64,000 nucleotides of DNA from Candidatus Nealsonbacteria bacterium (GTDB taxonomy: Bacteria > Patescibacteriota > Minisyncoccia > Minisyncoccales > JANBVM01), in NCBI GenBank assembly GCA_047456295.1, contig CP179887.1:559159-623158 (forward strand), written 5' to 3'. The stretch's first letter is position 1; each line of letters begins with the position of its first letter. The notes under the pieces were generated by a model. It had not been told where the DNA came from, did no database searches, and was given only the letters and a program-made list of their open reading frames with translations. A program made the position numbers and the translations under genes. This document shows, in pieces, positions 1,250 through 36,632 of this stretch.

Positions 1250-2329
1250 ATGCGATTATTAGGATTAATTCCCCAAAAATTTTTAGGAATAGATATTGGT
1301 ACTTCTTCTATTAAGGTTGTGGAAATGTCGAGCTGGGCAGGAAGAAAGAAACTGGAAAACTATGGTGAAATCTCAGCTTCGGTTCTCTACAAAAAACCCT
1401 TCAGGACATTTGAAAAAACCATCCTGTTGCTTTCCAGTAAAGATATTGCCAGGGCAATTAAAGCCATCATTGAAGAAGCCAAGATTAAATCAAGCAAGGC
1501 TGCTTTTTCAATCCCTGATTTCTCTACTTTTTTTACCACCTTTGAATTGCCGCCAATGACCCCTGAAGAAATTCCTCAGGCTGTAAAGGCTGAAGCCAGA
1601 CGCCATGTTCCCCTTCCTCTGGGAGAAGTGACATTAGACTGGCAGATACTGGAGAAACCCATTAATACCAGAAAGGGAAAAGTGAAGATTCTTTTGGTTA
1701 CTGTTCCCAACGAAGTTATCAATCAATATCAAAGGATTGCTGCAGATTTAAACCTTGAGCTCCTGGCCCTGGAAGCAGAGATATTCGGTATGATGAGGTC
1801 ATTGGTTGATAAAGACGAGAAAGACATTCTTGGTTTAATTGATATTGGCGCTAGAAGCACGACCTGTAGTATAATTAGTAAAAAGGTCTTAAATATCTCC
1901 CGCAGTTTTGACCTCTCGGGAAATAGTTTGACAGAAAGGATAGCAAAAGGACTGTCGGTAGATTATAAAAAGGCAGAGGATATTAAAAAGAAACATGGAA
2001 TCTTATCTTCTCAGGAAGATGTAAACAGGAACAATAGCAGAGATATTTTAATTCCTTTAATTGATTTAATCATTAGTGAGATTGATAAAGTTTTTAAGAG
2101 TTTTTATCTAAAAGAGAAAAAAGAGGTTAAAAAGATTATTCTCTCTGGAGGAACTGCTCTTTTGCCCGGTCTGTTGGAATATTTTCAGGACCATTTTCCC
2201 AAAAAAGAAGTGGAGATTGCCAATCCCTTTTCAAAGATTTTCTTTCCTCCCATTCTTGATGAAACGTTAAAAGAGATGGGACCTTCTTATACTATTGCCA
2301 TAGGTATGGCCCTGAGGGGATTGGAATAA
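1250..2329 (+). CDS. pilM: type IV pilus assembly protein PilM (actin-like ATPase fold)
   Basis: LGIDIGTSSIKVVEM phosphate-1 motif and a later GGTALLPGL motif. First gene of a pilMNO-pilB block. Confidence 0.85.
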   Translation: MRLLGLIPQKFLGIDIGTSSIKVVEMSSWAGRKKLENYGEISASVLYKKPFRTFEKTILLLSSKDIARAIKAIIEEAKIKSSKAAFSIPDFSTFFTTFELPPMTPEEIPQAVKAEARRHVPLPLGEVTLDWQILEKPINTRKGKVKILLVTVPNEVINQYQRIAADLNLELLALEAEIFGMMRSLVDKDEKDILGLIDIGARSTTCSIISKKVLNISRSFDLSGNSLTERIAKGLSVDYKKAEDIKKKHGILSSQEDVNRNNSRDILIPLIDLIISEIDKVFKSFYLKEKKEVKKIILSGGTALLPGLLEYFQDHFPKKEVEIANPFSKIFFPPILDETLKEMGPSYTIAIGMALRGLE

Positions 2330-2381
2330 TGATTCGTATCTTGAGGAAATAATGATAAACTACTAATGAGGAATTATTAAG

Positions 2382-2909
2382 ATGGTTGAAATAATACCAA
2401 GACCAATTAAAAAAATAGTTCGTTGGGAGGAAATCTTGTTCTATTTCTTGGTATTCTTAATAATGGCAGTGATTGTGATTTATTTTGTATTAGGCTCTCT
2501 TCAAGAAAGGGCCCAGAGCAAACTCCAGGATTTAGAGGAAGGATTGTCTCAGGGAAGAACCCCTCAAATGACTGCTTTAGAACAAGAAGCCCTTTATTAT
2601 AAGGTAAAGATTGATGAATTCTCTCCTTTTCTTGAAAAGCATACCTTAAGTTCAAAATTCTTTGATTTTTTAGAAAGCAGGACCCATCCCAAAATTTTCT
2701 TTTTTCAAATCAATCTAAACCCTGGAAATTCAAAGGTTCTCCTTTCTGGACTGGCCGATAGTTTTCTGTCTTTAGGACAACAACTTTTAATTTTAAGTAA
2801 GGATCCAATGGTTGAAAGCATAAATCTGTCCAATGTGTCTCTCGGCGAAACAGGGGGAATTGAGTTTGCCTTTGATATGGTATTAGCCGAGGAGGTTTTC
2901 AGGTATTAA
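2382..2909 (+). CDS. pilN: PilN-like bitopic pilus alignment protein
   Basis: One N-terminal TM helix, a coiled-coil segment, then a small C-terminal domain. Located directly after pilM. Confidence 0.5.
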   Translation: MVEIIPRPIKKIVRWEEILFYFLVFLIMAVIVIYFVLGSLQERAQSKLQDLEEGLSQGRTPQMTALEQEALYYKVKIDEFSPFLEKHTLSSKFFDFLESRTHPKIFFFQINLNPGNSKVLLSGLADSFLSLGQQLLILSKDPMVESINLSNVSLGETGGIEFAFDMVLAEEVFRY

Positions 2910-2960
2910 TAAAAGCCCTGTCTGTGGCCAAGATCCTGATTTCCCTTTTTTAGCCAAATT

Positions 2961-3479
2961 ATGACAAACTATTCATTTTACATCATTATTGCTTTATCCC
3001 TCTCTTTATTGTTGATATTCGGTTTGGTTTTGCCGAGATATAGGGATTGGGATTCTTTAAACCAGGAGATTTTTAAGAGGGAGATTGAACTCCGCTCTCA
3101 GGAGAACTATTTTCAAGAAATCCAGAGAATTTCTGGAAAGCTTAAAGAAAACCAGGATTCTCTTTCAAAAATTGAATCTGCCTTACCTGAAGATCGTTTC
3201 CTGCCCCAGGTGTTAAACTTTTTCCAAAAAGCAGCTTCTCAGTCAGGCACTAGCTTGAAACACATTGTTCCGGTTTTTGTTGCTTTAGAAAGAGGACAGA
3301 ATATCAGAACCACCAAGGTCAACCTTGTTTTAGGTGGTGATTATTACAGTTTTAAAGATTTTCTTTCCCTTGTAGAAAAATCAGCCAGACTCATTGAGGT
3401 TGAGAATATCTATTTTTCCTATCCTAAAGAAGGAGGTCCATTTATCTTTAATATATCAACAAAGACTTATTCATATTAG
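2961..3479 (+). CDS. pilO: PilO-like bitopic pilus alignment protein
   Basis: N-terminal TM helix, coiled-coil (EIELRSQENYFQEIQ), C-terminal domain. Located after the pilN-like gene. Confidence 0.5.
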   Translation: MTNYSFYIIIALSLSLLLIFGLVLPRYRDWDSLNQEIFKREIELRSQENYFQEIQRISGKLKENQDSLSKIESALPEDRFLPQVLNFFQKAASQSGTSLKHIVPVFVALERGQNIRTTKVNLVLGGDYYSFKDFLSLVEKSARLIEVENIYFSYPKEGGPFIFNISTKTYSY

Positions 3480-3480
3480 T

Positions 3481-3750
3481 ATGGCAATAACATTTCAAGA
3501 GCAACTGAAGAAACAGAAAAATTTAGTCTTTATTTTTTTATCCTTGGTGTTAGTCACTGTTTTTATCATTTGGTGGGGGTACTATTATGTGGGAGAAGAG
3601 CCCCGGGAGGAATTAATTTTAAAACATTTTAAAAAAATAGAGATAGATTTCGAGCTTTTAGAGAACCCTCTTTTAGACCAGCTTCAACCAATAGAGAAGA
3701 TACCGCCTTTTGAGGGAGAGGTGGGCAGAGAAAACCCTTTTATTCCTTAA
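3481..3750 (+). CDS. small single-TM protein in the PilP-equivalent position
   Basis: ATG at 3481 lies 1 nt after the pilO stop. The longer ORF from 3394 overlaps pilO, so I reject that start. TM helix LVFIFLSLVLVTVFIIWWGYYY. Confidence 0.4.
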   Translation: MAITFQEQLKKQKNLVFIFLSLVLVTVFIIWWGYYYVGEEPREELILKHFKKIEIDFELLENPLLDQLQPIEKIPPFEGEVGRENPFIP

Positions 3751-3818: not shown

Positions 3819-5531
3819 ATGGCATTATTAAAAGAACTAGTTAAAAAAGGATTTTTAGAAAAAGACAAAGCTGATTTTTTAGAAAAGGAGATCAAGGCTT
3901 CAGGAAAAAAAGAAGAGGAGGTTATTCTGGAAAAAAAGATTGTTTCCGAAGAATTTTTGTTTAACCTAAAATCAGAACATTTAAAGATGTCTTTGAAAGA
4001 TATAGATCCTAAAAAGGTTGCTCTGGAGGTTTTGGAACTCATTCCCGAAGAAACTGCCAAATACTACAAGATGGTTGCTCTATCCAAGAAAGACGATGTT
4101 TTAGAAGTGGGAATGATTTATCCTGAGGATATGGATGCCTTGGAGGCAATGAAGTTTTTGTCAAGGAGGGGTAAATTTGACTATCGATTATATCTGATTA
4201 CTCCCACCACTTTTACTAAGATATTGAAACAGCATCAAACCTTAAAAAAGGAGATAAAAAAGGCTTTAGAGAAATTAGAAGGTGAATTGAAAGTGGAAAA
4301 GGTTTCCAGACCCCCTGGAGCTGAAATAGAGAGACTGGTTGAAGAAGCTCCTATTTCCAAGGTAGTGTCCGTAATCTTAAGATATGCGGTTGAAGGAAAG
4401 GCATCTGATATCCACATTGAACCAGGTCAAGAGACGTTGAGGGCCCGCTTTAGATTACTAGGGTCTTTACATTCCTCATTTTTTCTACCCATTAGACTCC
4501 ATAGGGCTATAGTTTCCAGGATTAAGGTTTTGTCTAATTTAAGACTTGATGAAACCAGGATTCCCCAGGACGGCAGGTTTTCAGCCATAATAAACAATAA
4601 AAACATTGACTTTAGGGTTTCAACATTTCCCACAACCCTGGGGGAAAAGGTAGTGCTCAGGATTCTGGATCCCACAGTGGGTTTGAGGAGCTTTAAAGAA
4701 CTAGGAGTGCTTAAGAAAAATGCTAGAATTATCAATAAAGCGATTCAGAAACCCTATGGATTGATTTTGAGCACCGGTCCAACCGGTTGCGGAAAAACAA
4801 CCACCCTGTATGCGATCTTGCAGATTTTAAATAAAGAAGGAGTAAATATCGTTGCCCTGGAAGATCCGGTAGAATATTTCATAAAAGGGATTAATCAATC
4901 TCAGGTTAAACCGGAAATTGGCTACACCTTTGCCCGAGGTTTAAGGCATATCCTCAGACAGGATCCTGATATAATAATGGTGGGGGAGATTAGAGATAAG
5001 GAAACTGCCTCTTTGGTTACCCATGCTGCTCTGACAGGCCATATTGTTTTATCAACCCTGCACACATCCAACTCCCTGGGAGTAATTCCCAGATTAGTGG
5101 ATTTGGGGGTTCAACCATTTTTGATCCCCCCTACCCTGATATTAGCCATAGCCCAGAGATTGGTCAGAAGGTTGTGTAATGAGTGCAAAAAAAAGGTAAA
5201 GCCCTTAAAAAAGATTGAAGATTTAATTTTAAAGGAGATTGAAGGATTTCCCCCAACAATCAAAAAAGGGATTGATCTTTCAAAACCCTTATTTGTTTGG
5301 GAACCAAAGGGTTGCCCGCATTGTAATAACAAAGGTTTTTCCGGAAGAGTCGGTCTTTTCGAGATTTTAGAAATGACCCACCAACTTGCCGAAATAGTTT
5401 TAGAAGATATTTCAGAAAAAACTATACAGCAGGAGGCTGAGAGACAATTAATGACAACAATGAGGCAGAACGGTATTTTAAAAGTATTAAATGGAATGAC
5501 CACCATAGCTGAGGTTTTAAGGGTAACCTAA
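3819..5531 (+). CDS. pilB: type IV pilus extension ATPase PilB/GspE
   Basis: Walker A GPTGCGKTT, Asp box, Walker B IIMVGEIRD, His box LSTLHT, and the tetracysteine CNEC...CPHC. Confidence 0.9.
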   Translation: MALLKELVKKGFLEKDKADFLEKEIKASGKKEEEVILEKKIVSEEFLFNLKSEHLKMSLKDIDPKKVALEVLELIPEETAKYYKMVALSKKDDVLEVGMIYPEDMDALEAMKFLSRRGKFDYRLYLITPTTFTKILKQHQTLKKEIKKALEKLEGELKVEKVSRPPGAEIERLVEEAPISKVVSVILRYAVEGKASDIHIEPGQETLRARFRLLGSLHSSFFLPIRLHRAIVSRIKVLSNLRLDETRIPQDGRFSAIINNKNIDFRVSTFPTTLGEKVVLRILDPTVGLRSFKELGVLKKNARIINKAIQKPYGLILSTGPTGCGKTTTLYAILQILNKEGVNIVALEDPVEYFIKGINQSQVKPEIGYTFARGLRHILRQDPDIIMVGEIRDKETASLVTHAALTGHIVLSTLHTSNSLGVIPRLVDLGVQPFLIPPTLILAIAQRLVRRLCNECKKKVKPLKKIEDLILKEIEGFPPTIKKGIDLSKPLFVWEPKGCPHCNNKGFSGRVGLFEILEMTHQLAEIVLEDISEKTIQQEAERQLMTTMRQNGILKVLNGMTTIAEVLRVT

Positions 5532-5577
5532 AAAAGATAACGATGACAAGAATCTTAACACTAAGTTTGTTGTAATT

Positions 5578-5943
5578 ATGAAAAATATTTTATTAATAGA
5601 GGATGACCCCTTCCTTGTTAACATTTATACTACCAAATTGAACGAGTGTGGTTTTTCAGCAGAGGTTGCTACCGATGGTCGGGCAGGTCTAAGAAAAATA
5701 AAAGAAAAAAAATTTGATTTGATACTTTTGGATATTGTTTTACCCCACATTGATGGATGGCAGGTTCTAAAGGAGCTTGAGAAAACAGGTAAATTAAAGG
5801 ATTTAAAGGTTTTTATTCTTTCCAATCTTGGTCAGAAAGAAGAAGTGGAAAAAGGTTTGAAGATGGGTGTGGTAAGATATTTTATCAAGGCCCATTATAC
5901 TCCGGCCGAGGTGGTGGATGAAATTAGAAAAATATTAAAATAA
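5578..5943 (+). CDS. stand-alone response-regulator receiver domain (CheY/PilH-like)
   Basis: ILLIEDD, LILLDIVLP (phospho-acceptor Asp) and conserved Lys context. 121 aa with no output domain. Confidence 0.85.
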   Translation: MKNILLIEDDPFLVNIYTTKLNECGFSAEVATDGRAGLRKIKEKKFDLILLDIVLPHIDGWQVLKELEKTGKLKDLKVFILSNLGQKEEVEKGLKMGVVRYFIKAHYTPAEVVDEIRKILK

Positions 5944-5950
5944 TAACATT

Positions 5951-7018
5951 ATGTCAAACTACGTTTCTCAACTTAAAAAACTCCTTGAATTAACCATTAA
6001 AGAACAGGCTTCAGATTTACATCTCTCAGTGGGTCACTCCCCGGTTATGAGAATTGCCGGTCGTCTTATCCCTTTATTAAAAGAAAAAAAGCTTTCTCCT
6101 GAAGACACCAAGAATCTTGCTTTTACCCTTATGACCGATAGCCAGAGAAAAGAATTCCTGAAAGAAAAGGAGATTGACTTTTCCTATAAATTTGAAGAAA
6201 AAGCTCGCTTCAGGATAAACATATTCTTTCAGAAAGGGTATGTCTCTTGCGCCCTGAGATTTGTGCCAGCTAAAATTAAAACCATTGATGAGCTTAACCT
6301 CCCCCCGATTTTACACGAGTTTGCAAAGGCCAGCCAGGGTTTTGTTTTGGTCTGTGGTCCCTCGTCTCAGGGAAAATCAACAACCTTGGCAGCCTTAATT
6401 GACGAGATTAATCATACTAGGACCGATCACGTGGTAACCATTGAAGACCCCATTGAATATGTTTTTACTCCTGATAAGGCCATCATTGATCAGAGAGAGG
6501 TAGGTGAAGATACCCTGAGTTTTGCCAGGGCCCTTCGTTCCACCTTTCGTCAGGACCCTGATGTAATTATGGTAGGAGAAATGAGGGATCCAGAGACAAT
6601 GGCTACAGCCATTACAGCAGCTGAAACCGGTCACCTGGTTTTTGCTACCTTGCATACCAATTCTGCTGCCCAGACAATCCATCGAATCGTTGATTCCTTC
6701 CCTCCCCAGCAGCAGAATCAGATCAGGGTTCAGTTCTCAGGATCTCTGTTGGGGGTGGTTTCCCAACGATTACTACCCAGGATTAAAGGAGGATTGATAC
6801 CTGCCTGTGAAGTCATGATTTCTACTCCTGCTGTTGCCAATCTGATCCGGGAAAACAAGATCCATGAAATTCCTATGTTTATTGAAACCAATCTTGAGGT
6901 AGGAATGATTTCTTTGAATCGCTCTTTAGCCGATTTAGTAAAAAGAAAAGAAATCTCTTTGGAAAGCGCCCTCAATTATTCTCTTTCACCAAGCGAACTA
7001 AGAATACTTATACGTTAG
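5951..7018 (+). CDS. pilT: type IV pilus retraction ATPase PilT
   Basis: ASDLHL, Walker A GPSSQGKST, IMVGEMRD, ATLHTNSAAQTIHRI. 355 aa. Confidence 0.9.
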   Translation: MSNYVSQLKKLLELTIKEQASDLHLSVGHSPVMRIAGRLIPLLKEKKLSPEDTKNLAFTLMTDSQRKEFLKEKEIDFSYKFEEKARFRINIFFQKGYVSCALRFVPAKIKTIDELNLPPILHEFAKASQGFVLVCGPSSQGKSTTLAALIDEINHTRTDHVVTIEDPIEYVFTPDKAIIDQREVGEDTLSFARALRSTFRQDPDVIMVGEMRDPETMATAITAAETGHLVFATLHTNSAAQTIHRIVDSFPPQQQNQIRVQFSGSLLGVVSQRLLPRIKGGLIPACEVMISTPAVANLIRENKIHEIPMFIETNLEVGMISLNRSLADLVKRKEISLESALNYSLSPSELRILIR

Positions 7019-7025
7019 CTAATTA

Positions 7026-8228
7026 ATGAAATTCAATTATCAGGTCAGAACCAAAGAAGGAGAGATTCAGACAGGGATAGTGGAGGCTTCTTCAAAAGAC
7101 GCTGCTCTTTCTCTTTTGCAAAAACACGGATTTTACGTCACCTATCTTGAGAAGGCCAAGCTTCCTTTTTATGCCAGGGGTCTGGAGCTTTTTAGAGGCA
7201 TCACTGTAAGGGACATTGTTTTATTTTCCAGACAATTGGCAATGATGTTTACAGCAAAGGTTTCCCTGGTGGAAGCCTTGAGGGTTTTGGCCAGCCAGAT
7301 CAAGAACCTGGAGTTTCAAGCAAAAATTTTAAATCTATCTGAAGAAGTAGAAGGAGGAACAGCTTTTTCAAAAGCCCTCTCCCTTCATCCCAAGATATTT
7401 TCTGTCCTTTATATTTCAATAATTAAGGCTGGAGAAGTCTCAGGTAAACTATCTGAATCCCTTAATTATCTGGCCGATCACCTGGAAAGGGAATATCATT
7501 TATCATCTAAAACAAAAGGAATACTTATATATCCCTCTTTTATTGTGTTATTGGTTGTTCTGGTTTTCACCTTAATGATTTATACGGTTATTCCTCAGCT
7601 AAAATTGGTACTTGAGGAAAGTGGAGTTGACATACCGATAATTACTCGGTATGTCATCGCAGCCTCTGAATTTTTAAGGGTCTATGGTTTTATTTTCATT
7701 TTGGGATTCTTTATTTCTTTATTCTTGCTCTTTCGATATTACAAGACAGAAAGAGGGAAGGATTTTCTTGATAAGATATTTATTAGATTACCGATCCTGG
7801 GTACCATTTTGAAAACAATATATCTTTCCAGGTTCGCAGAAAATCTTTCTACCTTAATCTCAGGAGGCTTAATGATTACTCAAGCCCTTGATCTTTGCGC
7901 CAATCTTATTGGTAGTTCAGTTTATAAAAAGGCAGTTCTTTCAACAATGGAAGAGGTGAGAAAAGGGGTACCCATATCATCCTCCCTGGCTCTTTTTCCG
8001 GATATTTTTTCCCCGGTTTTCGTTCAGATGACACTGGTAGGAGAAAAAACAGGAAGTTTAGATACCAGTTTAATGCAGATTGCCACCTTTTATCAGGTAG
8101 AGGTTGAAAGGGGAATTACCAATATATTGAGTATTCTGGAACCTGTTCTGATTATCACTTTAGGAATTATGGTCGGGGGATTGATGTTTTCCATTTTAAT
8201 GCCTCTTTATCAAATGATGTCTATTTAG
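7026..8228 (+). CDS. pilC: type IV pilus platform protein PilC/GspF
   Basis: Two GspF-type repeats with interspersed TM helices. 400 aa, located after pilT. Confidence 0.9.
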   Translation: MKFNYQVRTKEGEIQTGIVEASSKDAALSLLQKHGFYVTYLEKAKLPFYARGLELFRGITVRDIVLFSRQLAMMFTAKVSLVEALRVLASQIKNLEFQAKILNLSEEVEGGTAFSKALSLHPKIFSVLYISIIKAGEVSGKLSESLNYLADHLEREYHLSSKTKGILIYPSFIVLLVVLVFTLMIYTVIPQLKLVLEESGVDIPIITRYVIAASEFLRVYGFIFILGFFISLFLLFRYYKTERGKDFLDKIFIRLPILGTILKTIYLSRFAENLSTLISGGLMITQALDLCANLIGSSVYKKAVLSTMEEVRKGVPISSSLALFPDIFSPVFVQMTLVGEKTGSLDTSLMQIATFYQVEVERGITNILSILEPVLIITLGIMVGGLMFSILMPLYQMMSI

Positions 8229-8244
8229 TTTCTTGACAGGGATA

Positions 8245-8253
8245 TGTTATAAT
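8245..8253 (+). promoter_or_regulatory. extended -10 element (TGTTATAAT) upstream of the pilin gene
   Basis: TGn-TATAAT with a TTGACA nearby at 8233-8238, though that spacing is too short to be a canonical -35. Implies a leader of about 140 nt. Confidence 0.35.
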
Positions 8254-8335
8254 AAATATCATAAGAAGAATTGTGTTTTAGAATAATTGATTCTTGCTTT
8301 ATTCAAATTAAAAAATAAAAAAAGTTGTTAAAAAT

Positions 8336-8355
8336 TTAAAGGTCGAATCCTTTAA
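8336..8355 (+). other. leader hairpin TTAAAGG-N6-CCTTTAA upstream of the pilin gene
   Basis: 7-bp stem with a 6-nt loop. It ends 46 nt before the ATG at 8401. Its arms match those of the hairpin at 16661. Confidence 0.35.
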
Positions 8356-8400
8356 TCATCACTCAATAGATATTAAACATAAATAATAAAAATAATTAAT

Positions 8401-8877
8401 ATGATTAAAAAAAATAAAGGTTTCACCTTAATTGAGCTTTTGGTGGTTATAGCTATTATAGGGACTCTGTCTGGGATTGTTCTGGTTTCTTTGGGAGGAG
8501 CAAGAAGTAAAGCCAGGGACGCAAACAGACAATCTGATATGAGGCAGGTAATTACTGCTCAAGAAATGTATTATCTTGATAACGATGAATATCTCGCTAC
8601 TAGTTCTGTAGATTATATACCTCAAATCGGGGAATATCTGGTGGCCTTATATGATCCTCAGGAGAGCCAAGGTGTGCATTATAAATGGATAGACAATACT
8701 ACCGACCATCAGAAATTCTGTGCCTATGCTACCTTAGAGAATGTAGGAGATTGTGTTGGAGATGCCAGCAATACCCGTTATTTCACTTCTTCTCCAAATG
8801 GAACCGGAATATATTGCGGTATTGCAGAGTCAGCTTTTCCCACTCTTACCGATTGTTATTCAAAAGGCTCTTACTAA
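8401..8877 (+). CDS. type IV (major) pilin with class III signal peptide
   Basis: [21 protein letters not shown] prepilin motif. 158 aa, followed by a strong terminator. Confidence 0.85.
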
Positions 8878-8902
8878 TACAAGATATTTATTCTTCTAGG
8901 GA

Positions 8903-8933
8903 ACTGGCGGGAAAAATTTCCCGTCAGTTTTTT
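8903..8933 (+). terminator. Rho-independent terminator after the pilin gene
   Basis: Stem of about 11 bp (ACTGGCGGGAA/TTCCCGTCAGT, one G-U pair) followed by TTTTTT. Confidence 0.8.
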
Positions 8934-8986
8934 ACATTTTATTTAAAATGCTAAAATAAAGTTGTGTTTTTCTAATTTAATTTAAA

Positions 8987-9799: not shown

Positions 9800-9871
9800 G
9801 AACATGGCAGGCCATAACCTTCCATAACCTTGATTTTTACTTGGCCTAAGTTTAAAATAAAAAAAGAATTT

Positions 9872-10735: not shown

Positions 10736-10740
10736 TACTC

Positions 10741-10770
10741 CTACGAGACCTGTCCTCGTAGAGATTTTGA
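10741..10770 (+). terminator. possible terminator hairpin after the 9872 gene
   Basis: CTACGAG-N7-CTCGTAG (7-bp stem) followed by the T-containing run AGATTTTGATT. Confidence 0.35.
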
Positions 10771-10830
10771 TTCTCGCCATGCTCAAAAATAAAATTATTT
10801 TTTAAACTCAAATACTAATAATATTAGATT

Positions 10831-10858
10831 TTACAATGGTAAGTTTTTATCTTATACT
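10831..10858 (+). promoter_or_regulatory. candidate promoter for the hxsD-hxsD-hxsB unit
   Basis: TTACAA, a 16-nt spacer, TATACT. Lies 45 nt upstream of the 10904 ATG. Confidence 0.25.
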
Positions 10859-10903
10859 GGATAGTAATGAACAAACCCAAGAAAAATTTATATTAATAAA
10901 AAA

Positions 10904-11383: not shown

Positions 11384-11389
11384 AGCATT

Positions 11390-11596: not shown

Positions 11597-11620
11597 TAGC
11601 TTTGTATATTTTTTATCATT

Positions 11621-24732: not shown

Positions 24733-24899
24733 AGTTTTTTATCAAATCTATAAAATAAGGTTTCAATTTTAATATAAATATTTATGGATTACAGATAAAA
24801 TTCCGAGAAAGCCCCTGAATTCATTCGTGTAGATGAATCGGAAAATATGATAAAATATTGTAAGTCGATTATTTAAAATTAAATCAAAAAAACTGCAAG

Positions 24900-25109: not shown

Positions 25110-25110
25110 T

Positions 25111-26208: not shown

Positions 26209-26262
26209 GTTACGATGATTTTTTATAAAATTTATTCTATAATGTAATAAATTATTAAGAAT

Positions 26263-26484: not shown

Positions 26485-26486
26485 CC

Positions 26487-27410: not shown

Positions 27411-27412
27411 TT

Positions 27413-28570: not shown

Positions 28571-28623
28571 AATTAAGTAACACAAAGGTCATGTTAAAAA
28601 AATTAAAATAATTTTGAGAAATT

Positions 28624-29112
28624 ATGAATATTAAAACTCCTTGGTTGGTCTTGGTTTCAATTAGTATAATATTGATTTTAACGGGCTTAGCCTTTTATAC
28701 ATATAATTATTCTGTTTCAGAGCTTCCTCAAGACACCGAACCAGAAATTCAAACTGAAACCCCTGCAGAAGCAGATTCTCAATATCCCAGGAATTTACTT
28801 GAAGCATTTATAATAAGTGTAGAGATAGATTCTCCAAAAGGGAACTTTAAAGTGAAAGTAGATTTGAATAAGATTTTTCCAGAGGAAGTTTCCCACACTA
28901 AAGAAGTAACAGTACTGACAGATGAAACAACAAAGTTTTCTGTTTACTATTTAGAAACTCAAGAAGAAACCCCAGCTACCATAGAAGATTTTGGAGAAGG
29001 AGTAGGCGTGGTTATAGCCATTAAAGAAGACAATGATACTATCTTAATTGAGGATTCCTTTACTGCTTTAAGGATGATGAAAATGATAGGTCCGTTCATC
29101 GATATTCAGTAG
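28624..29112 (+). CDS. hypothetical N-terminally anchored exported protein
   Basis: One TM helix, then an acidic linker and a small domain. Confidence 0.5.
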   Translation: MNIKTPWLVLVSISIILILTGLAFYTYNYSVSELPQDTEPEIQTETPAEADSQYPRNLLEAFIISVEIDSPKGNFKVKVDLNKIFPEEVSHTKEVTVLTDETTKFSVYYLETQEETPATIEDFGEGVGVVIAIKEDNDTILIEDSFTALRMMKMIGPFIDIQ

Positions 29113-29213: not shown

Positions 29214-30929
29214 ATGTATCCAGACTCAAAACTCACCAATAAAAAGGCAATTGTGTGGCTGACAAGAATAACAATCCTTATCTTGTTTATAGTGGGTAGT
29301 TTTGGATTTGGTGATAAGGCCTATACAGATACCTCTATTTATGACTTTTTTTCAGGGGCAAGAGTAAGCAACTGGGCTTATGAAAAAGGCGGCAGCCAGC
29401 CTGCCAGCCCCACTGATTATACTTCAGAAGCCTTCTGGCCTGACGACTACAACAATATCTCTTCCAGTAATAATGTAAGATGGGACACTATGCTAGCTAC
29501 TAATAATGATTGGGATTCTCAAATTTACACCTTTACCATCAATGAGTTTATCGATACCATCACCAGTCTGACCCTTGAATGGGAGGGTTATGGAGAAACT
29601 GCCAGTGTTTTTCTTACCCATTTTTATATCTGGAATCAAAATTCCAGTACCTGGGAACCATTAGACAGTCTAGATTTTACTTCAGCATCTGATATTACTT
29701 TAACTGGCAGCATTACCACCAACATTAGGAATTATATTAATCCTGTTACCAAGAAGTTAACTATCATGGCTGCTACCCAGAGAGCAAAACAATTGGGTGA
29801 GTCATGTGTTCTAAGTACTGAATGTGCTTCTGGTTATTGTGTAGATGGAGTGTGTTGTAATGAGACTTGTGGTGGTGATTGCGAGGCTTGTGATTTAGCA
29901 GGCAGTGTGGGCACCTGTACTTCGGTAGAAGACGGCACTGATCCTGAGGGAGACTGCGGTACTGGCTGCCAGCGTTGTGTCTCAGGCTCATGTCAGGACT
30001 ATAGTGACATCTGTTCTGCCATAGATTGTTACACTGGTAGCTGTGTGAGTGACGCCTGTACTATCTATTCTGGTGGTGAAAAAGGTACCTGTACTACCTG
30101 TCAGTATTGTAATGATAGTGATGCTGCCTGTGATAACTGGCCAAACAATACACAGGCAGGGGGATGTAATGCTACCTGCCAAGCTTGTCAGTCTGGTTCT
30201 TGTGGTTACGCAACTGCTGGTACTGATCCTGGCTCACATTGTACTAATCCTGTTTCTGGAAGCAAGACCACAGGATGTGCTACGGGTAACTGTAATTCGA
30301 GCCATGTTTGCGGAGTGTATACTTCAGGCGATCAGAATTGTCCAGTATGCTGGACGTGTACAGATTCTGATATAGCTTGCGAAAAGCACAACATATCATA
30401 TCGAGACACTTGTCCGGTTTGTAAAGCCTGTGATGCAAGCGGGGACTGTTCAGACGTTCTGACTGAGAACACAGATACTGATACCGGTTGGGGTTTTAAT
30501 CTTTATGGCTGTATCTCGGATTTCAGAACAGATAATAAAAGATGTTATAGCGGAGTCTGTAGAACATGTGAAAGCCCTGGGTATATTTATGATGATGGCT
30601 GCATTAATTGTGCTGGACAGGGAGGCAAGGCTTGCTGGCGTTACGGAGGAGATCCTGGTATATTCAATGGATTTAGTTGTAATACAGCTTGTGGTACCAG
30701 GGGTTGCGTCCAAGCAAATTGGAACGATACTACAAGTTGTAGTGTCTGTAGACATTGGTGGTCTACTGCCAACTGTTCAACTTTCGCTTCGGGCTATGGT
30801 TATGTGCCAGCTTATTATAATCTCCTTGGCACAGACACTTGTCATTATAGACCATCAGGAACTTCTCAAAACTGTGGTCTAACTACTGGTGAGGGTTGGA
30901 GTAGGCGTCTCTGTGTGTGTAATTGGTAA
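29214..30929 (+). CDS. secreted Cys-rich repeat protein
   Basis: N-terminal TM/signal sequence, a domain of about 190 aa, then about 350 aa of C-x-x-C / G-x-C modules (for example CASGYCVDGVCCNETCGGDCEAC). Confidence 0.7.
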   Translation: MYPDSKLTNKKAIVWLTRITILILFIVGSFGFGDKAYTDTSIYDFFSGARVSNWAYEKGGSQPASPTDYTSEAFWPDDYNNISSSNNVRWDTMLATNNDWDSQIYTFTINEFIDTITSLTLEWEGYGETASVFLTHFYIWNQNSSTWEPLDSLDFTSASDITLTGSITTNIRNYINPVTKKLTIMAATQRAKQLGESCVLSTECASGYCVDGVCCNETCGGDCEACDLAGSVGTCTSVEDGTDPEGDCGTGCQRCVSGSCQDYSDICSAIDCYTGSCVSDACTIYSGGEKGTCTTCQYCNDSDAACDNWPNNTQAGGCNATCQACQSGSCGYATAGTDPGSHCTNPVSGSKTTGCATGNCNSSHVCGVYTSGDQNCPVCWTCTDSDIACEKHNISYRDTCPVCKACDASGDCSDVLTENTDTDTGWGFNLYGCISDFRTDNKRCYSGVCRTCESPGYIYDDGCINCAGQGGKACWRYGGDPGIFNGFSCNTACGTRGCVQANWNDTTSCSVCRHWWSTANCSTFASGYGYVPAYYNLLGTDTCHYRPSGTSQNCGLTTGEGWSRRLCVCNW

Positions 30930-31067: not shown

Positions 31068-34000
31068 ATGTCTTTTCTAAAATCTAAAATTTTTATTTCT
31101 CTCTTTCTGATTTTAACCTTTTCTCTTTTGATTGGTGGATTTATAGTTGAGGCTGCATTGAACACAGATTACCCCAGGGTTATAGTGACTTTCACGGCTG
31201 ATGTTATTGATCCTGTTGTTACTGTCTTTGATGTTTCTCCTACTTTACTCACTGTCAGCGATGCAGAAACTACCATTTCTTGGACAGTTACTGATTCTGG
31301 AGGTTCCCACCTTTCTCATGTAGAAGTCTGGCGTGCTCCTGATGTTGATGGCGTACCTGGTACATGGGGTTTAATCAGCACCCATCCAGCTCCCGCAGAT
31401 TCTGATTCCTGGTCAAGTGATACCGCTAATTCTCCTCCAGAAGGTATCTGGTGGTATGGCATCCATGTTTTAGATAATGCAGGTAATATGGGAACTGAAA
31501 GTTCGCCAATTGAGGTGATTAAAGATACTACTCCACCTGCTGTTTCTATTGAAGGTGCTCCAGCTGATTGGCAAAACACCGATGCCACAGCTTCGGTTTC
31601 TTGTTCAGGAACAGGAAGTGGTTGTGTTCCAGCAACCTACAGAATAATAACATACGCTTTAAACCCAGGAACCTGTCCTGATGTTTACTCTAACTATACC
31701 TTAACCAGTCCTCAAACCATTTCTTCCCATTTATGGGTTTGCGGAACAGCCAAGGATTTAGGTGAAAACGTTGGTTTTTCCACCCCTGTTGAGTTTAAAG
31801 TGGATAAAGTACTTCCATTTACAGGAGTTATTTCTCCATCTGGTGGTTCTTGGCATAAAGATGATTTTACAGCTACTATTACTGATTTAGACTATGATTC
31901 TGGTCTGGTTACAACCTGTGAGTATCTAGTTGTGGGTTTAAATCCTCTAGAAGGACCTGACTGTTCTTCAGGAATACTAACCAGAAATTGTGGCTCTACT
32001 AACATAAATGTTTTTGTCGGTTCGGGAACCTGCGGTCCTGATAATATCTGTAGATTTGAAGGTGAAAATCAGTGTAAGGTTTCAACGCAATCTTTTGATA
32101 ATGCTGGAAATACTTCTGGTTGGAAAAGTAAACATTTCAGTATTGATTGGACTTCACCTGTGGTTGGAGAAATCTCTCCCTTGAATGCCACTCAGTGGAT
32201 AGAGCAGACTTTTAATGCTTCCCTTGCTGATCCAGTTGGAAAGATTATTGGTTGTTGGTTTTATGTAGACGGAGCTTATAAAAAACAAGCAGATTCTATT
32301 TTACCTATTCCTTGTGAAAATGGAGCAGATTGTACGGTTTCAGTAGATTATACCTTTACTTCTTCAGGAGATTTTAGTGCCCAATTTAGCTGTCAAGATG
32401 AGGCCGGACATATTGACTGGGGGGATCCGGTAACCATTAGTGTTGCAGAGGGGGAGAGTATAACCGCACCAATTATTACTAGTTTAGATTATTTTACCGC
32501 CCATTCTTCTGCTCCAGACCAAGAGTGTACTAATCAGTTTAACTGTTGTACAGAACCAACTACCCAAACAGATTGTTCTGTTAAATTTAATATTAGCGCT
32601 TATGACCCAGATGAAAATCCTTTAACTTATGATTGGGATTTTGGAGATGGAACACCGCATTCAAATAATGAAGACCCTTCGCATTACTACGATACTGCTA
32701 ACACTTATAATGTTTTAGTTGATGTTTTTGATGGAACAGAACATACTCAAGATACATTAGTCGTAACAGTAAATAATCCAACTGTTTCAGTTGGCCTTAC
32801 TGCTGACCCGGCTTTTGGCACTGATTCTCTGTCAGGAGTTGATTTAAGGGCAATTGTAGGTGGGTCAATGTTCGGGACAATAAATTATAAGTTTGATTGT
32901 ACAAATAATGATAGTTGGGAGCTGGAAGTCTCAAATCAAAGTATTGATGATTATACTGCTGTTGCTCTTTGCAGTTATTTAACACCAGCTAGTTATACAG
33001 CTAAAGCCTTTATTCAAAGAGGTGAAGGAAGTGCTGAAGATACTGCCAATATTGATGTATTGCCTTCAGAATGTACTTCTGGACAGCAAACCAGTTGTAC
33101 TTCTCCCCAGGGTTGCTCTCACACCATTACCTGTCAGGGAGACAGTACCTGGCCTCCTTGTCCATCAGATGAGTGTGTAAAAGCTAGTGCCCAGGATTGT
33201 GGCAATTGCGGAACTCAAACCTGTACAGATCTTTGTGCCTGGGATGCCTGTACCGGAGAAGGAGAATGTTCGCCAGGACCAGATTGTTCATCGTGTCCTT
33301 GTCCGACTGATTCCTGTGCGGGTCAGGATTATTATGATTACCCTGATTTCGGAGATTGTGACAGTTATTGTTCTTGTAATACAGGGACAGGAATAGGTCA
33401 GCCTTGTGAGCCTACTATTTATGTTGATGATTCTCGATGTAATCAAGCCCCTATTTGTGATTCTTTGATTGCCTCACCCAGTGCAGGGATTGCGCCCTTA
33501 GATGTATTGTTAACAGGTTCAGGTCACGACCCAGACGGAGTAATTTCTCAATATGAGTTTGATTTTGGAGATGGTTCTCCTTTAATTACCACTTCAAGTA
33601 ATAGTGTGGAGTATACTTATGATACTCCAGATACTTATTGTGCCAAGCTTAAGGTGCAAGACAATGATGGAATCTGGTCAGAAACTCCTGGTGATTGTCC
33701 GTCCACCTGTGGACAAGAAATTACTGTTAGCCCGAATAATCCTCCTCAAGCTCTTATTTCCTGTGATGCGACAAATTGCGGTCCTGGTTCTTACTGTGAT
33801 GTAACTGGAACCTGGATTGCCTACAACAGGAACTGTCAGTTTCATTTATTAAATAAATCCACTGATCCTGATTCAACAAATCCTGAAAATAACAATGATA
33901 TTGTAAAATCAATCTGGTCAATCTTCTATCAGGATGGTACTGCCTGGGAAGATCCTTGGTTGACCTGTATTGCTGATCCGGTTTGTGATATGCAATTACC

Positions 34001-34439
34001 AGCTTTGCCGGCAAACGAGAGTTATTATGCCAAACTATATGTTGAAGATAAGGTTGGTGCAAGCAGTGAAACCCAGAGAAACTTTTATGTCAGGAGAGAA
34101 GCAATTGCAGATTTTGAATGTTCTTTAAAGCCTGAAGAGGGCTGGCAGGTTTGCGGCGACAATTTCAGGGTCTCTGAAGGAGAAATAGCTTATTTCAGGG
34201 ATACCTCTTCGGTATCTGAAGGTGCAACAAGTGTTAGTTCCTGGTCATGGACATTTACAGATGGTATTCCTTCAACCAGCAATCTTCAAAACCCTTCAGC
34301 CAGCTTTGAAGAAGTGGATGCCGTTTCTGGCACAGTAAAATTAGAGATTACAGATAATGTCGGAAGAACAGACAGCAGGTCTTATCAGGTTTCAATTACC
34401 GTTCCTCTCCCTGAATGGCGTGAAGTTCCTCCCTTTTAA
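31068..34439 (+). CDS. large surface protein with PKD-type and Cys-rich domains (adhesin candidate)
   Basis: Signal/TM N-terminus and PKD signatures YDWDFGDGTP, YEFDFGDGSP and WSWTFTDG. A Cys-rich block spans roughly residues 670-800. 1123 aa. Confidence 0.75.
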   Translation: MSFLKSKIFISLFLILTFSLLIGGFIVEAALNTDYPRVIVTFTADVIDPVVTVFDVSPTLLTVSDAETTISWTVTDSGGSHLSHVEVWRAPDVDGVPGTWGLISTHPAPADSDSWSSDTANSPPEGIWWYGIHVLDNAGNMGTESSPIEVIKDTTPPAVSIEGAPADWQNTDATASVSCSGTGSGCVPATYRIITYALNPGTCPDVYSNYTLTSPQTISSHLWVCGTAKDLGENVGFSTPVEFKVDKVLPFTGVISPSGGSWHKDDFTATITDLDYDSGLVTTCEYLVVGLNPLEGPDCSSGILTRNCGSTNINVFVGSGTCGPDNICRFEGENQCKVSTQSFDNAGNTSGWKSKHFSIDWTSPVVGEISPLNATQWIEQTFNASLADPVGKIIGCWFYVDGAYKKQADSILPIPCENGADCTVSVDYTFTSSGDFSAQFSCQDEAGHIDWGDPVTISVAEGESITAPIITSLDYFTAHSSAPDQECTNQFNCCTEPTTQTDCSVKFNISAYDPDENPLTYDWDFGDGTPHSNNEDPSHYYDTANTYNVLVDVFDGTEHTQDTLVVTVNNPTVSVGLTADPAFGTDSLSGVDLRAIVGGSMFGTINYKFDCTNNDSWELEVSNQSIDDYTAVALCSYLTPASYTAKAFIQRGEGSAEDTANIDVLPSECTSGQQTSCTSPQGCSHTITCQGDSTWPPCPSDECVKASAQDCGNCGTQTCTDLCAWDACTGEGECSPGPDCSSCPCPTDSCAGQDYYDYPDFGDCDSYCSCNTGTGIGQPCEPTIYVDDSRCNQAPICDSLIASPSAGIAPLDVLLTGSGHDPDGVISQYEFDFGDGSPLITTSSNSVEYTYDTPDTYCAKLKVQDNDGIWSETPGDCPSTCGQEITVSPNNPPQALISCDATNCGPGSYCDVTGTWIAYNRNCQFHLLNKSTDPDSTNPENNNDIVKSIWSIFYQDGTAWEDPWLTCIADPVCDMQLPALPANESYYAKLYVEDKVGASSETQRNFYVRREAIADFECSLKPEEGWQVCGDNFRVSEGEIAYFRDTSSVSEGATSVSSWSWTFTDGIPSTSNLQNPSASFEEVDAVSGTVKLEITDNVGRTDSRSYQVSITVPLPEWREVPPF

Positions 34440-34451: not shown

Positions 34452-35009
34452 ATGGTAAAAGATAAAGGATTCACCCTGCCTGAGATTATCATGGTTGTTA
34501 GTATTATTCTTATTCTTACCTCAATCGTCATTGCTAATCAAAGGGAGGGTGAGAAGCAATTTTCTCTCCAAAGATCAGCCCATAAATTAGCCCAAGACTT
34601 AAGAGCCACCCAGGAAAAGGCAATGGGTGGGGTGAGATTTCATGGAGCTTTTCCTCAACAAGGATATGGGGTTTATTTTGTCGAAAACTCCAATTCATAT
34701 GTTTTATTTGCTGATTGTGACGGTGATAATGAGTATGACGGAGAATTTTTAGCCTGCCCGGATTGTTCTGGAGCATCCTGTATTGAAAATGTTTATTCAG
34801 AAAAGGTTGAAGAGTTTTTTTTAGAATCAGGGGTTATGATTTCCCAACTTTCTCCCTTTTCACCCTTAAATATTACTTTTTTCCCTCCTGATCCAACCAT
34901 AACGATTAAACCTGAATCTCTTGACTATCAGGCAACTACCACTCTGACCTTTGGGGGGAAAACTAGAACCGTCACTATCAATACCCTCGGTTTAATTGAT
35001 ATTGACTAA
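34452..35009 (+). CDS. pseudopilin / minor pilin
   Basis: MVKDKG/FTLPEIIMVVSIILIL class III signal. Confidence 0.8.
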   Translation: MVKDKGFTLPEIIMVVSIILILTSIVIANQREGEKQFSLQRSAHKLAQDLRATQEKAMGGVRFHGAFPQQGYGVYFVENSNSYVLFADCDGDNEYDGEFLACPDCSGASCIENVYSEKVEEFFLESGVMISQLSPFSPLNITFFPPDPTITIKPESLDYQATTTLTFGGKTRTVTINTLGLIDID

Positions 35010-35013
35010 AAAT

Positions 35014-35538
35014 ATGAAATCAAAGGGTTTTACATTATTAGAGGTAATTGCGGCAATTTTCGTTTTAGTTGTGGGACTGGGAGCTTCTTTTTCTTTAATT
35101 CATCAAACACTTTCTGCTGCTTCGATAGTTAAATCAAGATTAGTTGCTGCTTATCTGGCTCAAGAAGGCATTGAAATAGTTAAAAATACTCGTGATTCAA
35201 ATTGGCTTGAACAAAGAGTTACTGCCATTGCCTGGAATGAAGACCTTACTGAATGCCAACCTCCTGCAAAATGTTGCGAAAGTGATTATAAAACAGATAC
35301 CTCAGTCTCTTATCCTATAACCTCTCTTCTTAGCTGCGATTACGATAGTCTCCGTTATCTTAATATTGATAATAATGGTTTTTATAGTTATGCTGCTGGC
35401 ACCCCAACTAAATTTAAAAGAAATATTTCAATTGATACACAAACAGATAAAGTCAGGGTTTCAGTTGAAGTTGTATGGAAAGAAAGGGGCAGGATTCATG
35501 CCATTGAAGTCTTAGAAGATATAACCAACTGGTATTAA
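35014..35538 (+). CDS. pseudopilin / minor pilin
   Basis: MKSKG/FTLLEVIAAIFVLVVG. ATG at 35014 is preferred over the TTG at 34996. Confidence 0.8.
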   Translation: MKSKGFTLLEVIAAIFVLVVGLGASFSLIHQTLSAASIVKSRLVAAYLAQEGIEIVKNTRDSNWLEQRVTAIAWNEDLTECQPPAKCCESDYKTDTSVSYPITSLLSCDYDSLRYLNIDNNGFYSYAAGTPTKFKRNISIDTQTDKVRVSVEVVWKERGRIHAIEVLEDITNWY

Positions 35539-35578
35539 AAATAAATTTCAAATGAATACTACTAATCATTAAATACTG

Positions 35579-36247
35579 ATGAATCTTAACCATTTATTGA
35601 GAAAAATTATTTTTCCCTTATCCCAAAGCCAGCGTTCCTCATCAGATAGAGGATATACCTTAATTGAAATCTTGGTGGCTGCTGGCATCTTCTTTGTCGT
35701 ACTTGCAGGTCCTACCGGACTTCTCATTTCTTCCTTAAGGAGTCAGACAAGGATTTTAGGTTTGAGGGAAATTATTGATAATAGTTCTCATGTGCTTGAA
35801 TACATGAGTCGGGCTTTGAGAATGGCAAAAAAAGAATTAAACTGTGATATCAAATATGACCCCACGACATGTTTTTGTTTAAAGAGTAATGGTTACGGGT
35901 TCAATTATGAAAAAACTGACAGCAGAATTTTAGCTGGAACAGTTTATAGTGGTCCTGGTATAAAATTTAATAATTACCAGGAACCTCCTGTCTGCCAGGA
36001 ATTCTTCTGGGATATGAATGATAACCGGTTTAAGGAATCAAAGAATGGCTCAGTTCCTATTCCTCTGACTTCAGACGATTTAGAAATCACCCTGCTTGAA
36101 TTTGAATCTTTTGGAGAAGGACAAGCAGATGATTCCCAGCCAAGGGTGACAGTATTCTTTGATATTACTAAAAAGGGTGCTTTGGATTTCCCCCACACAA
36201 GAATTCAGACCACGATTTCTCAAAGAAATTTAGATGTGATGTATTAA
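35579..36247 (+). CDS. pseudopilin / minor pilin with a long leader
   Basis: SSDRG/YTLIEILVAAGIFFVVL. Confidence 0.75.
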   Translation: MNLNHLLRKIIFPLSQSQRSSSDRGYTLIEILVAAGIFFVVLAGPTGLLISSLRSQTRILGLREIIDNSSHVLEYMSRALRMAKKELNCDIKYDPTTCFCLKSNGYGFNYEKTDSRILAGTVYSGPGIKFNNYQEPPVCQEFFWDMNDNRFKESKNGSVPIPLTSDDLEITLLEFESFGEGQADDSQPRVTVFFDITKKGALDFPHTRIQTTISQRNLDVMY

Positions 36248-36290
36248 TCTGGATTGTGAAACCAAAATCGAATATTAAACATCAAACACT

Positions 36291-36632
36291 ATGTTTATTG
36301 ATCAAAGAGGAGTTTCAATGATGTTTGCCGTTCTAATAATGAGTTTTATCTTATCTATTGCTTTGGGAATAAGCATTGTTTTAATCCGTCAGGTTAAAGT
36401 AATGAGGGAAGCTGGTTATTCAGTCGTTGCCTTTTATGCTGCCAATAGTGGAATTGAAGAGATATTATTTCTCTTTAATCCAGATGGTATACCTGAGACT
36501 GCATTAAACGGAGCAAAGTATGAGGTTTCTGTCAATGCCAGTACTACCCCGGGTTGCAATGCGCCAAATTGGTGCATAACATCAACTGGTAGCTATAAAG
36601 ACACAAGACGGGCTATTGAAATAAGATATTAG
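36291..36632 (+). CDS. PilX-like small pilus-associated protein
   Basis: N-terminal hydrophobic helix (MMFAVLIMSFILSIALGISIVL) without a G/FTLxE site. Last gene of the minor-pilin run. Confidence 0.45.
   Translation: MFIDQRGVSMMFAVLIMSFILSIALGISIVLIRQVKVMREAGYSVVAFYAANSGIEEILFLFNPDGIPETALNGAKYEVSVNASTTPGCNAPNWCITSTGSYKDTRRAIEIRY

Follow-up and report, generated by a model that had tools for sequence, protein, structure and literature searches.

The window analysed here, a stretch of 64,000 nucleotides from a Candidatus Nealsonbacteria genome (contig CP179887.1, positions 559,159 to 623,158), carries a type IV pilus (T4P) locus which is split by an island of 20 uninterrupted same-strand genes (9830-29112). 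As judged from its protein sequences, this island is a greatly expanded variant of the known His-Xaa-Ser (HXS) radical S-adenosylmethionine (SAM) protein-maturation system. We consider it probable, though by no means certain, that it is a self-contained HXS cassette of a Candidate Phyla Radiation (CPR)/Patescibacteria type which sits in a cargo slot between pilD and the minor pilin genes and whose product is a matured surface protein. A preliminary description of this DNA had correctly seen a radical SAM island; its most informative feature, the HXS identity, had been missed.

The HXS core, its putative substrate and the A24-like protease

The proteins of the window were scanned with the Pfam and NCBIfam models; all genes listed here are on the + strand. 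The HXS identity is assigned because HxsD and HxsB pass equivalog cut-offs and the HxsA-like protein reaches the HxsA4 cut-off. HxsD (10904-11383) scored 60.5 bits with TIGR03976 (cut-off 50), and its segment 'LLNYSLRYQ' resembles LLNDYxLRE. Its small neighbour HxsD2 (11390-11596; 68 residues) matched no family model; an open reading frame (ORF) of 66-85 residues between HxsD and HxsB was conserved in every island seen. The radical SAM/SPASM maturase HxsB (11621-13081) scored 491 bits with TIGR03978 (cut-off 370) and has its CxxxCxxC motif at residue 103. A 13-kb contig of run DRR463593 with identical synteny codes for exactly this HxsB protein. The HxsA-like protein (13182-14675; 497 residues) reached 55.2 bits with the HxsA4 model NF038313 (cut-off 55), a match which covers its N-terminal 90 residues. 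Five further proteins have HxsC or HxsC4 as their best NCBIfam family, all below cut-off, and none of their genes adjoins that of HxsB. Together with three other radical SAM proteins this adds up to nine, and CxxxCxxC is intact in all of them (9/9). The 2023 version of PADLOC, which has no HXS model, yielded only weak generic radical SAM matches to pVip and was uninformative. No description of a CPR Hxs variant was found in the literature.

The HxsA-like protein consists of a basic leader, a hydrophobic segment, the HxS array, a Cys patch and a C-terminal region of about 340 residues. It contains 26 HxS triplets, 22 of which are contiguous (residues 83-148), and the repeat region between residues 61 and 160 has 25 His, 40 Ser and 13 Gly in 100 residues. 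In the family alignment the leader, K-L-P-S-I-K-K...F-L-T-S-E-E-G-K-I-S-K-K, was the most conserved part of the protein, and the residue preceding the hydrophobic segment was not conserved. Full-length homologs were rare. A word-indexed search returned 36, a profile search of a representative library of 1.84 billion proteins about 30 representatives. Two related loci, L011 and L093 (related loci are numbered with an L throughout), encode short HxsA precursors of which only the leader matched the window protein (54-59% identity). The class III prepilin motif G↓F/Y-T-L-x-E was absent from the HxsA-like leader although it is present in the window pseudopilins; likewise, no island protein contains G↓FTLxE. 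Because the leader lacks a class III motif and matched no pilin or Flp model, its sequence argues against a canonical pilin-like substrate. A Flp/Tad-like leader ('FLTSEEG...ALELG') was considered and rejected: four leaders of the family gave no Pfam pilin or Flp match at E<=10, and the pre-segment residue is unconserved.

The C-terminal region was modelled by AlphaFold2 as two β-sandwiches linked by a long helix (predicted local distance difference test, pLDDT, 83.5; predicted template modelling score 0.83). A fold search of the PDB with this region returned generic jelly-roll matches only; therefore, the fold does not allow a function to be derived. In a profile search the first β-sandwich matched 2,073 proteins. 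The large multidomain matches which were sampled were S8/C1 proteases and proteins with PKD, CARDB, HYR or CUB domains. Because this domain is common to secreted S8/C1 proteases and PKD/CARDB proteins, the comparison supports a putative extracellular location of the HxsA-like protein. With its net charge of +24, the C-terminal region of the protein is strongly basic.

A comparison with the close relative L002 revealed a mosaic. Nucleotide identity was about 98% from 3178 to about 13500 and 62-84% downstream. The breakpoint at ~13500 is located inside hxsA, just 3' of the HxS array. The low-identity stretch of the window (13500-16700) comprises the HxsA C-terminal region, the following radical SAM gene rSAM1 and a gene for a 198-residue protein; about 750 bp of rSAM1 are deleted in L002. 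The mosaic suggests that the part of the effector which is exposed was replaced by recombination, and the pattern fits diversifying pressure from phages or hosts. Because the identity drops so sharply across the HxsA C-domain, an arms-race signature is suggested at the hxsA breakpoint.

Toward its 3' end the island encodes a 385-residue paralog of the A24-type GxGD membrane aspartyl proteases (27413-28570). The preliminary description had assigned it to the prepilin-peptidase family. Its own PF01478 match does not carry this assignment (20.1 bits, gathering score 26.5), yet the homologs and the invariant Asp residues support it. The family comprises about 120 proteins, mostly from CPR, many of which have PF01478 on record. 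Asp26 ('YTDIRYGKI') and Asp95 ('SAGDAKF') are invariant in 19 homologs of 30-86% identity, and they parallel Asp127 and Asp194 of the window PilD. A PilD-type N-terminal domain is absent. With an AlphaFold2 model of pLDDT 84 the top PDB match was FlaK (3s0x), which was not significant (E 1.1, TM 0.45 over 153 columns).

The A24-like gene was found directly 3' of an island radical SAM gene in 8/8 contexts examined. Mostly this is a homolog of the HxsC-like gene at 26487-27410, the best HxsC match of the island (TIGR03977 173 bits, cut-off 267.9), as in L003, L009, L010, L012 and L094; in L011, L093 and L095 a different radical SAM paralog is located there. Because this position is kept in all eight contexts, the A24-like protein is a core component of the island and not a stray T4P gene. 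Its sequence makes it a candidate for the HxsA leader peptidase. The island had been said to end with this protease. The protease is indeed there, but the last gene codes for a 162-residue single-pass membrane protein with a hydrophobic N-terminus (28624-29112). This appears to be a conserved protease partner: a homolog is encoded 3' of the A24-like gene in L003, L009, L010 and L011, and at the start of the island in L004.

The pilD junction and the contexts of the island

The preliminary description had put forward that the island was inserted into a T4P locus. The comparison of the pilD junction was carried out with 80 related metagenome loci, which were found with the window PilD (52-66% identity) and annotated by tblastn with the window proteins. 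Nine had too little sequence 3' of pilD, leaving 71 informative loci. In 56/71 pilD is directly followed by the four pseudopilin genes, mostly with gaps of 3-180 bp, and then by ligA-ftsW-rpoB where the contig was long enough. PKD or Cys-rich adhesin-like genes come after pilD in 5/71, HxsD-HxsD2-HxsB-HxsA in 2/71 (L046 and L047) and other cargo in 8/71, e.g. an 803-residue surface protein in L024. The common state thus is a contiguous T4P locus, and the pilD/minor-pilin junction is a variable cargo slot with the Hxs island among its rarer occupants. In L043 there is no island, and PKD/Cys-rich adhesin genes come after pilD. The T4P proteins of this locus resemble those of the window (PilB 75%, PilT 86% identity) no less than do those of the island-bearing L003 (PilB 69%, PilT 81%). 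In a neighbour-joining tree of PilD, which is weak as the protein is short and support values are lacking, the island-bearing loci took at least two separate positions. Because 56 of the 71 loci run from pilD straight into the pseudopilins, because L043 has no island although its T4P genes are as close as those of L003, and because of the low GC content of the island, insertion into a variable cargo slot of the T4P locus is strongly supported.

The GC content is 0.320 in the island, 0.370 in the T4P machinery, 0.417 in the adhesin genes and 0.378 in the housekeeping genes (window about 0.36). Absence of integrase, direct repeats and tRNA at the edges had been claimed before, and the searches agreed. 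No island protein had a Pfam match to an integrase or recombinase; the tRNAs of the window are located at 154-481 and 56742-56826 only, at least 9 kb from the island; and the search for direct repeats at the edges gave only AT-rich matches of 10-13 nt. Of the hallmarks of mobile islands, integrase, tRNA and repeats thus were not found, while presence/absence polymorphism, a deviant GC content and mosaicism versus L002 were. Promoter-like sites in the region were at chance level only, and an Rfam scan of the island did not find a riboswitch or other RNA. A modest hairpin (10741-10761) 3' of the first island gene is a weak hint that the Hxs core has its own transcription start. With ~19 kb the island corresponds to roughly 3% of the ~0.65-Mb genome-scale contigs of its relatives.

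Is the island tied to the pilus wherever it occurs? The labels of the relatives which were found are of CPR/Patescibacteria, namely Ca. Nealsonbacteria, Ca. Colwellbacteria and, in one record, Saccharibacteria. The slot of the window is shared by L002, L003, L009, L046, L047 and L094. L003 (636-kb contig) has a compact island of 12 genes without the DUF483-like gene, the glycosyltransferase genes, the HpnJ-like (B12-class) radical SAM gene and others. In L009 (CP061210.1, 661 kb, labelled Ca. Nealsonbacteria) the visible part is the downstream half, which keeps the synteny as far as rpoB. In L094, with an A24-like protein of 33% identity, genes for a PKD protein and for homologs of each of the four pseudopilins come after the island. 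The arrangement of L010 is island, RNase Y, and then histidine kinase-REC-PilB-PilC-pilins; at the upstream end of this island a called gene (1-2297; 1055 residues) is an apparent fusion of two radical SAM domains. In L093 and L011, where the same A24-like protease is part of the island, there is no T4P gene in 21 kb. The island of L004 borders on ClpP upstream, and that of L012 on ferredoxin, POR and RecG downstream. Since the core (HxsD, HxsD2, HxsB, HxsA, the HxsC-like proteins and the A24-like protease) recurs without T4P genes in L093 and L011 and borders on other genes in L004 and L012, autonomy of the cassette is supported. The earlier alternative, that the island products act on the pilus or travel with it, is partly contradicted by L093 and L011, yet T4P adjacency recurs in L094 and L010, so that a link in trans may exist. 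Islands at positions free of T4P linkage, the finding which was to speak against a pilus connection, thus exist in L093 and L011 and for one edge each in L004 and L012, but not in L094 and L010.

The remaining island genes are mostly accessory enzymes. The island starts with a gene for a DUF483-like Cys-rich accessory protein (9830-10735; PF04467 33 bits); weak tblastn matches (24-27% identity) were found within the islands of L010, L012 and L094, and the compact island of L003 does not encode it. rSAM1 (14781-15764), a Pfam Radical_SAM protein with a SPASM-like C-terminus (TIGR04085 25.7 bits, just under the cut-off of 27), has a homolog 3' of hxsA in L003 and L004. The 198-residue protein with a hydrophobic N-terminus (15910-16506) matched no family; homologs are inside the islands of L002 and L004. 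The HxsC-like proteins other than that at 26487 are an HxsC4-like radical SAM protein (16734-17639; NF038332 162 bits and TIGR03977 107 bits, both sub-cut-off; CxxxCxxC at residue 14), an HxsC-like one (19379-20347; TIGR03977 120 bits, cut-off 267.9) and two HxsC/HxsC4-like ones (22744-23727 and 23794-24732; NF038332 155 and 80 bits, sub-cut-off; CxxxCxxC intact). An HpnJ-like radical SAM protein (21253-22653; TIGR03471 189 bits, sub-cut-off; CxxxCxxC at residue 205) is of the B12-binding class by its best NCBIfam matches, and a radical SAM/SPASM protein (25111-26208; SPASM 43 bits) resembles the ACGX system type.

Two small paralogs, sm69 (24900-25109; 69 residues) and sm73 (26263-26484; 73 residues), each precede a radical SAM gene. 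A homolog precedes the last HxsC-like gene in L003, L004, L009, L010 and L012. The start of sm73, 'KKLPSIKK', is nearly identical to the start of the HxsA-like leader, 'RKLPSIKK', and the underlying DNA is also similar. The small proteins may represent a second substrate or a chaperone.

Two glycosyltransferases are encoded in the island: a polytopic membrane GT-C enzyme (PMT_2; 17664-19322; PF13231 35.9 bits) and a GT2 enzyme (20523-21203; PF00535 98.8 bits; TIGR04182 and NF041391 sub-cut-off) which resembles polyprenyl-phosphate sugar synthases of the AglJ/Dol-P-hexose transferase kind. The GT-C gene is present in the islands of L009 and L010 and absent from that of L003. The window GT-C (17664-19322) is 93% identical to that of L009 (1114-2766), whereas identity is 74-87% for the adjoining island genes; the GT-C gene may thus be under stronger constraint or have been exchanged more recently. 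The acceptor of glycosylation in the window could be the Ser-rich HxS array or the pilins. In L085 a methyltransferase, an 813-residue GT-C/STT3-like protein, a B12-radical SAM protein and a GT2 enzyme (4812-9975) are encoded between four pilin paralogs and pilD, and Hxs genes are absent; this insert probably is a pilin glycosylation cassette. In L064 a GT2 gene is located among the pilins.

The T4P genes on both sides of the island are arranged as had been described. Machinery, major pilin and PilD end at 9799, and adhesin candidates and four pseudopilins resume at 29214; Pfam and NCBIfam scans bore this out, including the common strand. The parts list is complete: PilM (1250-2329), followed by PilN and PilO; PilB (3819-5531); PilT and PilC; an N_methyl major pilin (8401-8877); and PilD (8987-9799; A24_N + A24). 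Downstream of the island are a Cys-rich 571-residue adhesin-like protein (29214-30929), an adhesin-like PKD protein of 1123 residues (31068-34439; PKD matches) and four pseudopilin (minor pilin) genes (34452-36632), three with N_methyl matches, followed by ligA, ftsW, rpoB, rpoC, ftsK and recA. The gene order of the machinery is conserved across dozens of related loci. Between pilO and pilB is an ORF of 89 residues (3481-3750) to which no family could be assigned; almost every related T4P locus has it in this place, and it may code for a component similar to PilP. Most related loci also share the REC response regulator gene which stands alone in the pilB/pilT gap (5578-5943; Pfam). Because it is missing in L034, L037, L056 and L068, it is a variable regulatory insert inside the machinery block. 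Directly 3' of the major pilin gene and before pilD a strong terminator-like hairpin was found (8897-8934; 17 pairs and a T-run). Such a hairpin is typical of attenuation 3' of a highly expressed pilin gene.

Adhesin homologs also occur 3' of pilD or among the pseudopilins in the island-less loci L015-18, L021, L026, L032, L034, L043 and L061. In L015-L018 and L061 a homolog of the Cys-rich 571-residue protein is located between the second and third pseudopilin genes; hence, adhesin-like cargo can take several minor-pilin positions. The surface proteins of L024 (10856-13267) and L005 (4594-5067) share an N-terminal '...LAWTEP(T/P)...PPGGNVP' motif after the hydrophobic segment. In L024 the protein is located in the cargo slot 3' of pilD, in L005 upstream of an Hxs island.

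Proposed function of the island and alternative explanations

The island most likely functions in the maturation and export of a modified surface protein. The following sequence of events is proposed. The 497-residue HxsA-like precursor would be made with its basic leader, for which sequence conservation speaks. HxsD and HxsD2 would then present the 22-26 HxS triplets to HxsB, the five HxsC-like and the three other radical SAM enzymes, and the triplets would be covalently modified in the cytoplasm. Next, the hydrophobic segment would insert into the membrane, where the A24-type protease and its 162-residue partner presumably remove the leader. Where the GT2/GT-C pair is present, it may glycosylate the exported Ser-rich array. 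Finally, the mature, modified His/Ser array with two basic β-sandwiches of an extracellular type would remain at the cell surface. By analogy to E. coli, such a surface-exposed HxsA-like protein would most plausibly bar the entry of phage DNA; the product thus possibly has an antiphage role. Adjacency to the pilus is, in our estimate, probably a matter of position in the main, because the slot collects surface-protein genes.

Several observations weigh against this view. None of the HxsC-like proteins reaches the cut-off of HxsC (best 173 versus 267.9) or HxsC4 (162 versus 500). Number and order of the genes depart from the canonical D-B-C-A, i.e. 20 genes ordered DUF483-D-D2-B-A and then the C-like genes. 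The HxsA-like repeats lack basic residues, and a peptidoglycan-binding domain is missing, as there was no Pfam match and no such fold in the PDB search. With these two differences the DNA-binding model of E. coli may not apply. Only sequence motifs speak for the A24-like protein as a protease; its profile found no match among PDB sequences, and the match with FlaK was not significant. Lastly, the island adjoins T4P genes in 6/11 informative contexts, including two arrangements other than that of the window (L094 and L010). In genomes of ~0.65 Mb this exceeds positional accident when a naive expectation is used which does not control for shared ancestry.

Could the island be a composite of neighbours, i.e. 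an Hxs cassette next to an independent pilin-glycosylation cassette and not one unit? We regard this as rather unlikely, although it fares best among the alternatives. The compact island of L003 lacks the GT2, GT-C and B12-radical SAM genes, the T4P locus of L085 has a pair of GT2 and B12-radical SAM genes but no Hxs genes, and the window GT-C is closer to its L009 counterpart than its neighbours are. However, in the window, L009 and L010 the glycosyltransferase genes and, with them, the HpnJ-like gene are interleaved with those of the HxsC-like proteins and do not lie at an edge. Moreover, in L010 GT2 and GT-C are inside the island although RNase Y separates it from the T4P genes.

A functional coupling of island and pilus is less probable. 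Here, the HxsA-like protein, with its leader and a hydrophobic N-terminal helix, would be a pilin-like substrate which a dedicated prepilin-peptidase paralog cleaves and which the T4P machinery then displays, or extracts and secretes; or the island enzymes would modify or glycosylate pilins. The island is tightly packed on the same strand within a T4P locus, its conserved protease belongs to the prepilin-peptidase family, and T4P adjacency is found in several arrangements (window/L003/L009/L046, L094 and L010). The glycosylation module among the pilins of L085 occurs without Hxs genes, so such modules do associate with pilins in this lineage. These points are countered by the HxsA-like leader, which has no class III motif, matched no pilin or Flp model at E<=10 and has an unconserved residue ahead of the hydrophobic segment. 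Furthermore, most related T4P loci function without an island, and in L093 and L011 the island occurs with T4P genes absent over 21 kb.

The third alternative accepts a surface protein and questions its role. Instead of defence, the protein would serve in host interaction or metal binding of an episymbiotic CPR cell; a β-sandwich stalk would carry the long His/Ser array, modified and perhaps also glycosylated, for attachment to the host or for metal capture, and its genes would lie next to others for attachment (T4P and adhesins). The nearest named relatives are Ca. Nealsonbacteria, which are reported as ectosymbionts of Methanothrix and for which T4P have been proposed for attachment. PKD and Cys-rich adhesin-like genes occupy the slot as well, 25 of 100 residues of the array are His, and the C-domain, which belongs to a fold family found in secreted proteins of the adhesin and protease type, is hypervariable between strains. 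Yet hypervariability fits phage pressure equally well, and the sole HXS system which has been characterised experimentally is antiphage. We consider this alternative quite unlikely. Most improbable is a conversion of HXS into a pilus-associated surface organelle, in which a radical SAM-modified and glycosylated HxS protein, processed by the A24-like protein as a pilin would be, is presented at or through the T4P/DNA-uptake apparatus and would gate the entry of phage or scavenged DNA; if this were true, the A24-like protein would represent the protease type behind the non-canonical HxsA processing reported in E. coli.

The predictions for a self-contained cassette with a matured surface protein as its product are testable in the Nealsonbacteria-Methanothrix enrichment known from the literature, provided that CP061210.1 corresponds to that culture.

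Comparison with known systems

Pilin glycosylation modules of T4P combine a GT-C enzyme, e.g. TfpW or a PMT-type enzyme, with a polyprenyl-phosphate sugar synthase. The window is similar in that GT2 and a PMT_2 GT-C are encoded inside a T4P locus, and L085 has a comparable cassette beside the pilins. It differs because the window glycosyltransferase genes lie in between HxsC-like genes, and those of L010 accompany the Hxs island.

With PilD, TadV/CpaA and FlaK/PibD (MEROPS A24, GxGD) the island protease shares a polytopic structure and the invariant Asp in 'D-I-R-x-x-K-I' and 'x-A-G-D-A-K'. The preflagellin peptidase FlaK was its top, though not significant, structural match. In contrast to the prepilin peptidases it lacks the PilD N-terminal domain and contains ~250 additional residues, among them a soluble insert. 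Its gene is found with those of radical SAM enzymes instead of pilins, and a canonical class III signal is absent from its likely substrate. The comparison of the related loci, moreover, identifies the pilD/minor-pilin junction of CPR T4P loci as a variable cargo slot for surface proteins.

In the NCBIfam collection the variants HxsA3/HxsA4 (NF038309, NF038313), HxsC4 (NF038332) and HxsD_rel (NF038315) come closest. The N-terminal 90 residues of the HxsA-like protein reach the HxsA4 cut-off. HxsC4 is the best match for two island radical SAM proteins, yet with 155-162 bits they are far under the cut-off of 500. The HxsA variant models cover the leader and repeat part only; the 340-residue C-terminal region and the protease module of the island are not represented.

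In E. coli, hxsD-B-C-A is a broad antiphage system which blocks the entry of phage DNA (Li et al., Nat Commun 2026, PMC13128918). A +8 Da modification in an HxS repeat requires each of HxsB, HxsC and HxsD, as does a non-canonical cleavage of HxsA at its N-terminal part; the protein is then exported, and a peptidoglycan-binding domain, which is essential, anchors it (PMC13128918). Of the HXS systems surveyed in that study, 99.7% came from Pseudomonadota and 99.6% were ordered D-B-C-A (PMC13128918). The island shares with the systems of E. coli and Klebsiella (TIGR03976-03979) HxsD and HxsB at equivalog level, a substrate with tandem HxS repeats behind an N-terminal export/processing region, and radical SAM partners which best match HxsC/HxsC4. 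Unlike nearly all described systems, which are in Pseudomonadota, it is hosted by a CPR bacterium. Compared with E. coli it has 20 genes instead of 4 and the order D-D2-B-A followed by C-like genes instead of D-B-C-A. Its HxsA-like protein has 26 triplets versus 5, no basic residues in the repeats, and two β-sandwiches which replace the peptidoglycan-binding domain. Added are five sub-cut-off HxsC-like proteins, three radical SAM proteins, GT2/GT-C, the A24-type protease and its partner protein. The function of HXS was assigned only in 2026, and the system was reported nearly exclusively from Pseudomonadota; the locus described here shows a far larger version in ultra-small CPR genomes. Nine radical SAM enzymes are available for one substrate of 26 repeats, and the GxGD protease is a concrete candidate for the missing step of HxsA processing.

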